The translations under genes were made by a program, and so were the position numbers. 64,000 nucleotides of DNA from Patescibacteria group bacterium (lineage in GTDB: Bacteria; Patescibacteriota; Patescibacteriia; JACQRZ01), in the NCBI GenBank assembly GCA_038065125.1, contig JBBTRP010000006.1, positions 172-64,171 on the forward strand. Reading direction: 5' to 3'. The stretch's first letter is position 1. Each line of letters opens with the position of its first letter. The notes under the pieces were generated by a model. It worked only from the letters and a program-made list of their open reading frames with translations, had not been told where the DNA came from and did not search any database. Of the stretch, positions 29,185-31,405 are shown piece by piece.

Positions 29185-30071
29185 AAAAAATACAAGGTTT
29201 ACTACTGCTTGCCCGTCCGTATCAATGGCATAAAAATGTACTCGTCCTAGCCGCGCTTTTATTTTCCGGGCAACTTGAGAGTGTGTCCTCAGTTCAGCTT
29301 TCACTCGTGGCATTCTTTGCTTTTTGCCTCCTTTCTTCAGCGATCTATGTAATAAATGACATTCGCGATTGCGATGACGATCGTCATCACCCAGTAAAAC
29401 AAAAACGCCCGCTTCCGACAGGAGATGTGACATTGATTCACGCATGGGTACTGAGTATAGTTCTTCTCGTTTGCGGAATGTTGGTAAGTTTCTTTCTTGG
29501 AATTTCTTTTTTTGCGGCTGCAGGTGCATATGTCGTTTTGAACGGTTGTTATACATTTGCCCTGAAGAGGATTCCACTTCTGGAGATTTTTTCAGTCGCT
29601 ATGTGTTATGTGCTTCGTGTTGTTGCTGGCGCCTTTGCGATCCATGCTCCCGTAACACCCTATCTACTGATTGCAAGTATGTTGCTATCCATTCTCCTCA
29701 TTCTTGGAAAGCGCAGGCATGAGCGTATGCTCTTTCTTGAAACGGTCCCATTACACCGACCGGTTCTTGCTCAGTATTCCATACAATTTTTGGACCAGCT
29801 TACTACAATATCAGCCGCGGCGACTCTTATTGTGTATATTCTCTATACCCTTGACGAGCACACAAGGACACTTACAGGAAGTTCACTCATGCCCCTCACT
29901 ATACCGTTTGTCATCTATGGTCTCTTCCGCTATCTTTTGATTGTTGGTAATCTTGATCGCGGCGGCGATCCGTCGAGAGATCTTCTTCTCGACAAACCTC
30001 TTCTCGCCACGTCGTTGGTATGGGTAGGAAGCATTATCCTCATTATTTATTCTGCCCGCCACTCCTTATGA
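29172..30071 (+). CDS. UbiA-family prenyltransferase, decaprenyl-phosphate phosphoribosyltransferase (DPPR synthase)-like
   Basis: NDIRDCDDDRHHPVKQKRPLPTG (NDxxDxxxD + basic patch). About 8 TM. Confidence 0.75.
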   Translation: MVLIKKIQGLLLLARPYQWHKNVLVLAALLFSGQLESVSSVQLSLVAFFAFCLLSSAIYVINDIRDCDDDRHHPVKQKRPLPTGDVTLIHAWVLSIVLLVCGMLVSFFLGISFFAAAGAYVVLNGCYTFALKRIPLLEIFSVAMCYVLRVVAGAFAIHAPVTPYLLIASMLLSILLILGKRRHERMLFLETVPLHRPVLAQYSIQFLDQLTTISAAATLIVYILYTLDEHTRTLTGSSLMPLTIPFVIYGLFRYLLIVGNLDRGGDPSRDLLLDKPLLATSLVWVGSIILIIYSARHSL

Positions 30072-31405
30072 AGCATGATCCGCTCCAAATCCAATTGTTT
30101 CGTAGTAAGCGCGTTCTTGTTTTAGGAGACATCATGATTGATCATTACATCTACGGCGATTCAAACAGAATTTCTCCAGAAGCCCCAGTTCCTATAGTAA
30201 ATCGTAAGTCAGAATCCTACCATCTTGGCGGAGCCGCTAATGTGGCGCACGCAATTACGTCTCTTGGTGCAGAGGTTCTCCTGTGTGGAGTGGTTGGTAA
30301 TGATGATGCAAAGTCGATCGTTTTTAACCTCCTCCACAAGGCCGCAATCGCATCGCACGGCATTTTCTTTTCGGACACAAAAAAAACGGTCATCAAACAA
30401 CGCATCGTCGTCAACGGTCATCACATGCTTCGTCTTGACAGCGACGACACCCCGTACTTCTCTGAGGAGGATTGTCGGCGTTTTACGGCCATGGTCGAGC
30501 CGTTGATTGTTTGGGCAGACGTGGTGCTTTTTTCCGACTACGGAAAAGGCGTGTGTTCCCCGTCGCTGGTCAAACGAATCCTTGCACACGCAAAAGCGCA
30601 TGGCAAAGCCGTGATTGCAGATTTTAAACCAGGAAATGACGCACGCTTTTGCGGGGCGAACCTTATTGTTCCGACCGAGCAGGAGACGCGAGAACTTACC
30701 GGATGCAGTACATTTATGGAGGCGGGCCCACGTCTCGTGAGTGAATACCAGTCAGATGTGTTGGTGACACGCGGAAAAGAAGGAATGACGATTTTCTTCA
30801 AAAATGGGGACACCACTTCCATTCCCCCTAATCCCATGAACGAGTTTGACGTTACGGGAGCAGGGGATACGATCCTTGCGATTCTCGGTTTGGCATATGC
30901 GGTCGGAATGCCGCTGCATGAGGCAGCAACACTTGCGAATCGAGGAGAGGGGATTGTGGTGCAAAAGCCCGGAACTGCGACCGTAAGTCTTGAAGAACTA
31001 ATTTCGAGTGTCGAAGACAATCGTCATATCGAAGGCGTTAGTCTTGTGCCCAAGATCTGGGGATATGAGAAATGGTTGGAAAATAGTGATAAGTACTGTT
31101 CAAAAATTCTTTCACTCAATAAAGGGTTCCAGTGCAGCCTTCACTACCACAAAATGAAGGACGAGATGTTTCTTATACTTAAGGGGCATGTACGCATGGA
31201 GGTTGGCGACACCGTTTCACATATGCGCGAAGGTAACTTTGTTCGTATCGCACCCGAGACCCCGCATCGATTTACTGGAATTGACAATTCGATGATTTTG
31301 GAGGTTAGTACCTATCACGACGAGGGTGACTCATATCGAATACAAGAGAGTAGGAAACTAGACGAGTATGAATTCAGCTTCCTCGCTCCCGGTCGCACTA
31401 TATGA
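30068..31405 (+). CDS. HldE domain I-like (pfkB) D-heptose-7-phosphate kinase fused to a C-terminal metal-binding cupin domain
   Basis: RfaE-I motifs ([44 protein letters not shown]). C-terminus contains the cupin motif G(x5)HxH(x4)E(x6)G as [21 protein letters not shown]. ATGA overlap with the upstream gene sets the start at 30068. Confidence 0.75.
   Translation: [445 protein letters not shown]

Follow-up and report, generated by a model that had tools for sequence, protein, structure and literature searches.

A candidate cupin-type sedoheptulose-7-phosphate isomerase fused to a heptose kinase in Patescibacteria and DPANN archaea

We analyzed a 64-kb stretch of DNA from a Patescibacteria group bacterium (contig JBBTRP010000006.1, positions 172 to 64,171; hereafter, the window) and, in particular, one of its genes, which encodes a kinase fused to a cupin. 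With a probability that we put at about 60%, this protein joins a cupin-type sedoheptulose-7-phosphate isomerase to a heptose kinase and so covers steps 1 and 2 of the nucleoside diphosphate (NDP)-beta-D-manno-heptose pathway. The cupin is most likely a non-homologous replacement of GmhA, which has the SIS fold. The domain identities, conserved residues, fusions, and gene neighborhoods described below were obtained directly, and on this basis we infer what the substrate is, which reaction is catalyzed, and in what order the steps follow.

GmhA counts as the universal entry enzyme for bacterial heptose nucleotides. It is a target for antibiotic adjuvants, and the pathway that it opens leads to ADP-heptose, which is an agonist of innate immunity. 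A full-text literature search returned no description of a cupin-type sedoheptulose-7-phosphate isomerase or of a heptose-kinase cupin. If the proposed function is true, it would add a new example of non-homologous enzyme displacement, and this in a pathway that has been studied well. It would also explain how heptose nucleotides could be made in many Patescibacteria and DPANN archaea that have no recognizable gmhA and for which module-based metabolic reconstructions would score the heptose pathway as incomplete, and it would correct a widespread misannotation of the homologs.

Structure and integrity of the fusion gene

The open reading frame (ORF) runs from 30020 to 31405 on the forward strand without interruption, and the gene starts with the ATG at 30068 (Table 1). 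At the upstream edge, the stop codon of a UbiA-family gene overlaps this ATG (ATGA); at the downstream edge, the stop codon at 31403-31405 shares ATGA with the start codon of a GmhB-like gene. Translational coupling is therefore indicated on both sides. In the encoded protein, Pfam recognizes PfkB at amino acids (aa) 14-307 (E 7e-32) and Cupin_2 at aa 349-403 (E 7.6e-10; 38.8 bits, with the cut-off at 27.2), and finds no CTP_transf_like domain (PF01467). The AlphaFold2 model of the full-length protein has a predicted local distance difference test score (pLDDT) of 91.8.

An independent 746-bp contig from ENA encodes a 222-aa protein, P0121, which corresponds to aa 224-445 with 221 of 222 residues identical. 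As this contig crosses the kinase-cupin junction, the fusion is not an assembly artefact. The same architecture is present in at least 120 clusters of full-length homologs (40-53% identity, about 435 aa), mostly from Patescibacteria and DPANN archaea, and an alignment of 58 sequences shows the two halves of the protein to be equally conserved. The kinase-cupin fusion is a real, widespread, and uncharacterized architecture. The original prediction, made from the sequence alone, had described an N-terminal kinase of the RfaE/HldE domain I type, a C-terminal metal-binding cupin of the isomerase or epimerase type, and the loss of HldE domain II. The absence of domain II agrees with the lack of a PF01467 match, and a frameshift or missed stop between the domains, which would have undone the prediction, is excluded by the unbroken frame, the independent contig, and the many clusters with the same layout.

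Six kinase-cupin homologs (P0006, P0055, P0056, P0072, P0076, and P0100) carry the label 'D-beta-D-heptose 7-phosphate kinase/D-beta-D-heptose 1-phosphate adenosyltransferase' from the Joint Genome Institute (JGI), though they have no adenylyltransferase domain. Other database names of the homologs are generic ('PfkB kinase' or 'cupin protein'). The kinase/adenosyltransferase naming of these fusions is a systematic misannotation.

Kinase domain

The best NCBIfam family for the kinase half is TIGR02198 (rfaE_dom_I), which aligns aa 8-315 with model positions 2-314 of 315 at 298.3 bits; the kinases of related fusions score 285-339 bits. The model of bifunctional HldE (NF008454) covers only the kinase half (model positions 4-319 of 475), and the sole PDB sequence with E < 1e-10 to this half is Burkholderia HldA (4e84, E 2.7e-53). 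The GG lid GGAANVA and the catalytic/anion-hole motif DVTGAGDT are present and invariant in the homologs, D261 and G264-T268 being among the invariant positions. Judged by its sequence, the N-terminal half is related to HldA and to domain I of HldE, and the protein as a whole is not a bifunctional HldE; the type of kinase originally predicted is thus upheld, and the translation contains all four of the motifs that were quoted with the prediction.

The window kinase carries five substitutions at positions conserved in 93-98% of the homologs, namely N62A, Q119H, E126D, N203T, and A293G; the active-site residues of the cupin are intact.

Cupin domain and its predicted active site

Modeled alone with AlphaFold2, the C-terminal domain is an all-beta barrel with pLDDT 92.9, and fold searches also return cupins. 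It has the double-stranded beta-helix of the superfamily and motifs of the G-x5-H-x-H-x3,4-E-x6-G and G-x5-P-x-G-x2-H-x3-N types, so that a C-terminal part of some other fold is excluded as well. The only specific families that match it by sequence are the C-terminal domain of type II phosphomannose isomerase (PMI; PF01050) and D-lyxose isomerase (PF07385), both slightly under the cut-off; most homologs carry a precomputed PF01050 match. Neither Pfam nor NCBIfam gave a SIS match (PF13580, PF01380, or TIGR00441) in the fusion protein.

The best Foldseek match of the cupin is the Thermococcus PMI 7zvy. Among the structural matches listed, six have at least 20% sequence identity (21-23%), and five of these are aldose-ketose sugar isomerases: the same PMI 7zvy, the D-lyxose isomerases 7nzo and 3kmh, the Salmonella PMI 2wfp, and the L-ribose isomerase 5avp. 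The sixth, 3kgz (23%), is an uncharacterized cupin. A search of viral folds with the cupin yielded generic cupins only.

The sugar- and Mn-binding residues of the Thermofilum D-lyxose isomerase TsLI are K62, H75, H77, K86, E88, H143, E156, and D163, and mutating the equivalents of K86, E156, and D163 kills activity (PMC8378251). In the fusion, seven of these eight residues have counterparts in K346, H359, H361, K364, E366, H400, and E412, all of which are aligned explicitly to the Bacillus subtilis D-lyxose isomerase YdaE and invariant in the 58 homologs. The alignment of the family profile with YdaE brings together N-x-D-[KR]-YCSK, H-x-H, K-x-E, the distal His, and the Glu. D421, invariant as well, is the likely eighth counterpart, offset by two residues (spacing 9 vs 7), and joins K346, H400, and E412 as a predicted active-site residue outside the central motif. 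Apart from two known insertions, the spacing of the residues matches that of TsLI. The cupin is thus predicted to have the active site of a C1-C2 aldose-ketose isomerase for lyxo- or manno-configured substrates, and the isomerase-like character and metal motifs of the original prediction are retained.

The GmhA step in related loci

We examined loci extending 8-10 kb to either side of each kinase or cupin gene. A scan of representative genomes gave mostly ordinary cupin-less kinases; from it, L001, L080, and L004 (with an unfused cupin) were relevant, and the rest served as the control set. Seven loci (L001, L080, L087, L089, L090, L091, and L094) contain all four of the kinase, the cupin, GmhB, and the CTP_transf_like nucleotidyltransferase. 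Several of them also have GT9, and L087 and L089, like L088, have HldD: the SDR gene adjoining the fusion in these three loci scores 384-410 bits, above the HldD equivalog cut-off of 274.6. No SIS/GmhA gene lies within 8-10 kb in any of the seven, and the cupin is the one conserved domain without an assigned step there.

A SIS gene occurs in two of the 14 cupin-bearing loci, the window and L081, both times beside an NTP_transferase gene. In L081 it sits in a contiguous GHMP kinase-SIS-NTP_transferase-HAD block, which looks like a self-contained alpha-heptose-type module. In the cupin-less control loci, SIS adjoins the kinase in 15 of 77 cases (adjacency overall, p = 0.11). Where GmhB is clustered with the kinase, SIS adjoins the kinase in six of ten cupin-less and none of nine cupin-bearing loci (p = 0.011). 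These co-occurrence statistics are suggestive only. Since p = 0.011 is reached only where GmhB is clustered with the kinase, the argument rests on pathway completeness and on the fusions, not on the statistics.

Fusions of the cupin with other heptose enzymes

The tight cupin family comprises 124 representative clusters at E up to 1e-30 and is found both free-standing and in at least six fusion arrangements (Table 1). For the partner domains, the top-scoring model is rfaE_dom_I or rfaE_dom_II, and two of the fusions, P0210 and P0217, cover the whole bifunctional HldE model in addition to the same cupin. As complete HldE proteins carry the cupin too, it is an addition to HldE-type enzymes and not a substitute for the adenylyltransferase. 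Here the original prediction, in which the cupin stood in place of the adenylyltransferase domain, has to be given up: related loci encode the nucleotidyltransferase either on its own or as a fusion with GmhB, and P0210 and P0217 have both domains. Repeated independent fusions of one cupin family place the cupin in the heptose pathway and support the proposed function.

A CTP_transf_like-cupin protein of L090 was considered as evidence for the family and then downgraded, as its cupin is of the classical PMI type and only 24% identical to the window cupin; it is weaker evidence than the tight-family members P0225, P0210, and P0217.

Remoter stand-alone relatives of the cupin (47-50% identity) are encoded in two phage-like contigs rich in small ORFs (L092, 8001-8348; L093, 8001-8417). 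The L092 contig further encodes a single-stranded DNA-binding protein (SSB), ClpP, and, at 1-1828, a fusion of GT9 with GT1. Parts of the heptose pathway thus seem to travel on mobile elements.

Proposed order of steps and mechanism

A C1-C2 aldose-ketose isomerase needs a free anomeric carbon and cannot act on a sugar phosphorylated at C1. The product of the kinase and all later intermediates carry a phosphate or a nucleotide on C1, and the cupin would therefore act before the kinase. Only sedoheptulose-7-phosphate and heptose-7-phosphate are open to C1-C2 isomerase chemistry, which would place the cupin at the GmhA step.

If the analogy to D-lyxose isomerases holds, the metal ligands would be H359, H361, E366, and H400. 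In the proposed mechanism, the cupin interconverts sedoheptulose-7-phosphate and heptose-7-phosphate: H359 would help to open the ring, E366 would shuttle a proton through a cis-enediol, and K364 would stabilize this enediol intermediate. The HldA-type kinase would then use ATP to phosphorylate O1 of the beta-anomer, giving heptose-1,7-bisphosphate, from which GmhB, the product of the next gene, would take off the 7-phosphate. A nucleotidyltransferase encoded outside the 64-kb window would activate heptose-1-phosphate for heptosyltransferases of the GT9 type. With both activities in one protein, the ATP-driven kinase would draw the reversible isomerization forward. That a cupin can take the place of a phosphosugar isomerase of another fold has a precedent in phosphoglucose isomerase, which exists as a cupin type and as an analogous SIS/PGI type; genomes of the candidate phyla radiation (CPR) include examples of each (PMC7304191).

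Table 1. Features of the window, gene content of related loci, and fusion arrangements of the tight cupin family. Slashes and commas follow the order of genes where it is given.
Feature	Location	Coordinates	Strand	Remarks
Kinase-cupin fusion gene	Window	30068..31405	+	445 aa plus stop; unbroken ORF, ATGA overlaps at both ends; PfkB and Cupin_2 (Pfam)
Kinase domain, HldA / RfaE-domain-I type	Window	30089..31012	+	aa 8-315; TIGR02198 298 bits; GGAANVA, DVTGAGDT
Cupin domain, proposed sedoheptulose-7-phosphate isomerase	Window	31043..31345	+	aa 326-426
Metal and catalytic motif H359-Y-H361-K-M-K364-D-E366	Window	31142..31165	+	Invariant in 58 homologs; spacing as in Thermofilum D-lyxose isomerase
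GmhB-like HAD-IIIA phosphatase (heptose-1,7-bisphosphate 7-phosphatase)	Window	31402..31926	+	Directly downstream of the fusion and translationally coupled to it
GHMP kinase, HddA-like (alpha-heptose kinase type)	Window	22890-23873	+	GHMP_kinases_N/C (Pfam); NF049969 HddA 143 bits (cut-off 600); 6 kb upstream
RmlC-like gene	Window	37763-38392
SIS gene, GmhA-like	Window	38405-39007	+	TIGR00441 86 bits (cut-off 209); about 7 kb downstream of the fusion
NTP_transferase	Window	39004-39819	+	Glucose-1-phosphate (G1P) cytidylyltransferase model 256 bits (cut-off 300); overlaps the end of the SIS gene
Fusion, CTP_transf_like-GmhB fusion, HldD, GT9	L087, L089
Fusion adjacent to CTP_transf_like-GmhB fusion	L090			SDR epimerase and GT9 upstream
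GT9 / fusion, GmhB, CTP_transf_like / GT9	L094 (Woesearchaeota)			Near STT3; L095 similar
Fusion, GmhB, nucleotidyltransferase, GT9	L080 (Nanoarchaeota)
GmhB, nucleotidyltransferase, HldD-like gene nearby	L001 (Liptonbacteria)
Fusion, GmhB, GT9	L085 (Daviesbacteria)
Nucleotidyltransferase and GT9 flanking the fusion	L081
GT9 / cupin, GmhB, kinase	L091			Unfused cupin; nucleotidyltransferase 3 kb away
Cupin, HldD-like, kinase, nucleotidyltransferase	L004			Unfused cupin
Fusion beside GAPDH, RpiB, Rpe, transketolase	L083
Kinase-cupin				Fusion arrangement as in the window
Cupin-kinase				Six representatives; one cluster from Diapherotrites archaea
Kinase-nucleotidyltransferase-cupin	P0210
Cupin-kinase-nucleotidyltransferase	P0217
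GT9-cupin-kinase	P0286
Nucleotidyltransferase-cupin	P0225

Points against the proposed function and alternative functions

Several observations weigh against an isomerase-kinase of the heptose pathway. The window kinase is under the TIGR02198 equivalog cut-off (298 vs 345 bits) and deviates from the homologs at N62A, E126D, and N203T, the last of which turns the NxxE motif, with N in 98% of the homologs, into TEQE. The scores of the cupin for PF01050 (23.1 bits, cut-off 23.6) and PF07385 (19.7 bits, cut-off 20.8) fall short, and no phosphate-binding site was located in it, while D-lyxose isomerases use unphosphorylated sugars; K329, R401, H417, and R424 are candidate residues for binding the 7-phosphate. 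The window and L081 do have a GmhA-like SIS gene, though in a separate SIS-NTP_transferase module, and when any SIS gene in the locus is counted, cupin-bearing loci (2/14) do not differ from controls (15/77; p = 1.0). Finally, the 64-kb window has no CTP_transf_like or GT9 gene, and the end of the pathway is not visible there.

It is conceivable, if unlikely, that the cupin makes a heptose-7-phosphate of non-manno configuration or uses another ketose phosphate. CPR bacteria, DPANN archaea, and the phage-like elements with stand-alone relatives would then build a new NDP-heptose into surface glycans or N-glycans.

The original prediction had the product of the kinase handed to the cupin, with a different downstream fate of heptose-1,7-bisphosphate. 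In such a scheme the cupin would isomerize or epimerize heptose-1,7-bisphosphate or heptose-1-phosphate to a differently configured heptose, which we regard as rather improbable. The isomerase type of the cupin stands, and its position after the kinase does not, the cupin being most likely upstream: its conserved residues match C1-C2 aldose-ketose isomerases, for which the anomeric carbon has to be unblocked, and the cupin-bearing epimerase CapF is just 13% identical to it. Nor does a different fate agree with the genes that follow, GmhB in the window and a canonical set in related operons (GmhB, rfaE_dom_II, HldD above the equivalog cut-off, and GT9).

Equally doubtful is an ordinary PMI, or an isomerase of free mannose or lyxose, that works on hexoses in a route to an ADP-mannose-like nucleotide or in salvage. 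The closest named families, the C-terminal domain of type II PMI and D-lyxose/D-mannose isomerase, speak for it, as does the relative P0313, which is fused to NTP_transferase in the manner of GMP-PMI. However, heptose-7-phosphate kinase is the best-scoring assignment of every kinase partner, the L083 fusion adjoins pentose-phosphate enzymes that make sedoheptulose-7-phosphate, and the operons hold HldD above the equivalog cut-off, whose C6 epimerization is meaningless for a hexose.

Cupin epimerases are common in glycan clusters, and the window itself contains an RmlC-like gene (37763-38392). A C3/C5-type epimerase of a nucleotide-activated heptose, like the GDP-heptose cupins of Campylobacter or RmlC, with which the final sugar would be diversified, is nevertheless very unlikely. 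Such an enzyme works by way of a 4-keto intermediate, and the genes beside the fusion include no conserved 4,6-dehydratase; Pfam finds no dTDP_sugar_isom match in the cupin, which keeps the full His3-Glu metal site and the catalytic residues of D-lyxose isomerases. Least probable of all is a non-catalytic sugar- or metal-sensing regulator of the kinase: cupins are ligand-binding domains in AraC-type regulators, and P0228 has a weak AraC_binding match, but bacterial and archaeal members alike keep seven or eight residues of the catalytic type without variation. The cupin also stands alone in heptose operons (L091, L004) and is fused to partners other than kinases, and a regulator specific to the kinase would be expected to do neither.

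Comparison with known systems

The proposed isomerase-kinase resembles HldA and HldE domain I in the whole-domain alignment of its N-terminal 315 aa (E 2.7e-53), the GG lid, GAGD, and the adjacent GmhB gene; it differs in the absence of domain II, the score below the cut-off, TxxE, and the C-terminal cupin. With GmhA (TIGR00441), the cupin would share the reaction and the position in the pathway, and in cupin-less loci GmhA often adjoins hldE or hldA. However, the folds are unrelated (SIS alpha/beta vs cupin beta-barrel) and there is no sequence similarity, making the cupin a possible analog of GmhA and not a homolog.

Among cupins, the D-lyxose/D-mannose isomerases (YdaE 2y0o, TsLI 7nzo, and the Escherichia coli O157 enzyme 3kmh; PF07385) are larger, having insertions of 6 and ~20 residues that the fused domain lacks, use sugars without a phosphate, and show no linkage to heptose genes. 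Type II PMI (ManC, AlgA; TIGR01479, PF01050) likewise is a C-terminal cupin isomerase attached to an enzyme of the same nucleotide-sugar pathway and shares with the archaeal PMIs 7zvy and 7zvm, and with the reaction proposed here, the conversion of a ketose phosphate to a manno-aldose phosphate. Its partner is an NTP_transferase rather than a PfkB kinase; the sub-threshold PF01050 score (23.1 vs 23.6 bits) and the 24% identity to the PMI-type cupin of L090 mark the distance between them. The cupin-type phosphoglucose isomerase (PF06560; Pyrococcus, Thermococcus, and some CPR) was not among the Pfam matches at E up to 0.01, has a gluco product, and belongs to a different pathway. CapF of Staphylococcus aureus, an SDR enzyme with a C-terminal cupin (13% identity), is an epimerase acting on a UDP-4-keto sugar and does not have the residue pattern of lyxose isomerases.

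Actinobacteria are reported to have tridomain isomerase/kinase/nucleotidyltransferase NDP-heptose synthetases (Tang et al. 2022). These enzymes, too, fuse an isomerase to a heptose kinase, and P0210 and P0217 are three-domain analogs with a cupin. The isomerase domain of the actinobacterial proteins is probably GmhA-like (SIS).

Observations in related loci

In L083, the enzymes encoded beside the fusion (transketolase, Rpe, and RpiB) are a source of sedoheptulose-7-phosphate. A split transketolase-like pair in L090 was initially taken as pentose-phosphate context as well and then withdrawn, since a like pair sits in a sugar-modification module of the window (53116-54958). L083 is the only true pentose-phosphate context among the loci.

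Three loci (L087, 11307-12317; L089, 11293-12294; L090, 11289-12299) encode an rfaE_dom_II nucleotidyltransferase (158 bits) fused to GmhB (166 bits). This gene always directly follows the kinase-cupin gene and is a non-canonical packaging of the pathway.

In two loci of the Woesearchaeota type (L094, 14584-17709; L095, 13602-16850), the kinase-cupin gene and several GT9 genes adjoin the oligosaccharyltransferase STT3/AglB, which hints at heptose in archaeal N-glycans. More generally, the linkage to GT9, and in archaea also to STT3, points to heptose-containing surface glycans in organisms without lipopolysaccharide.

Gene neighborhood in the window

Most of the window is given over to surface glycans and encodes LytR-CpsA-Psr, flippases, SDR enzymes, and many glycosyltransferases. 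Its topoisomerase I is most similar to those of Patescibacteria, with 59-66% identity to Uhrbacteria, Falkowbacteria, and Kerfeldbacteria and up to 82% to metagenome-assembled genomes. The GmhB-like gene next to the fusion scores 154 bits on NF006506 (cut-off 178) and 135 bits on TIGR00213 (cut-off 149.6), and its product is 39-44% identical to the HAD half of the CTP_transf_like-GmhB fusions of L087, L089, and L090.

Further downstream, the region 36625-41751 on the forward strand encodes a C-methyltransferase, an RmlC-like cupin, the GmhA-like SIS protein, an NTP_transferase, a CDP-glucose 4,6-dehydratase, and an RmlD-like reductase. The dehydratase is above its equivalog cut-off, and the NTP_transferase is similar to G1P cytidylyltransferase, below the cut-off. 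Compared to the contiguous GHMP-SIS-NTP_transferase module of L081, the window SIS protein is 45% identical and the GHMP kinase 38% identical. The SIS and NTP_transferase pair probably belongs with the GHMP kinase to a second sugar module, and this module (36625-41751, with the kinase at 22890-23873) resembles an alpha-heptose or 6-deoxy-sugar route.

Between the GHMP kinase and the fusion, at 23873-30071, lies a co-directional run on the forward strand with a DAO FAD oxidoreductase, a HAD-IB phosphatase, two SDR genes, and the UbiA-family gene, with one reverse-strand ORF in between. On the model of decaprenyl-phosphate phosphoribosyltransferase, which has its cut-off at 234 bits, the UbiA-family protein reaches 226. 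The run closes with the ATGA that it shares with the fusion gene and resembles, in this CPR bacterium, a pathway for a lipid-linked pentose of the decaprenyl-phosphoryl-ribose/arabinose type.

At 53116-57336, also on the forward strand, a split pair of genes for a thiamine-diphosphate enzyme (E1_dh; Transket_pyr/Transketolase_C) is followed by a 249-aa ORF (54955-55704), a HAD gene, and an SDR gene. The 249-aa ORF has no Pfam match and a weak tblastn similarity to a PMI-type cupin. This region may be a branched-chain sugar module; a split pair like that of the window is also present in L090, at 17040-18699.

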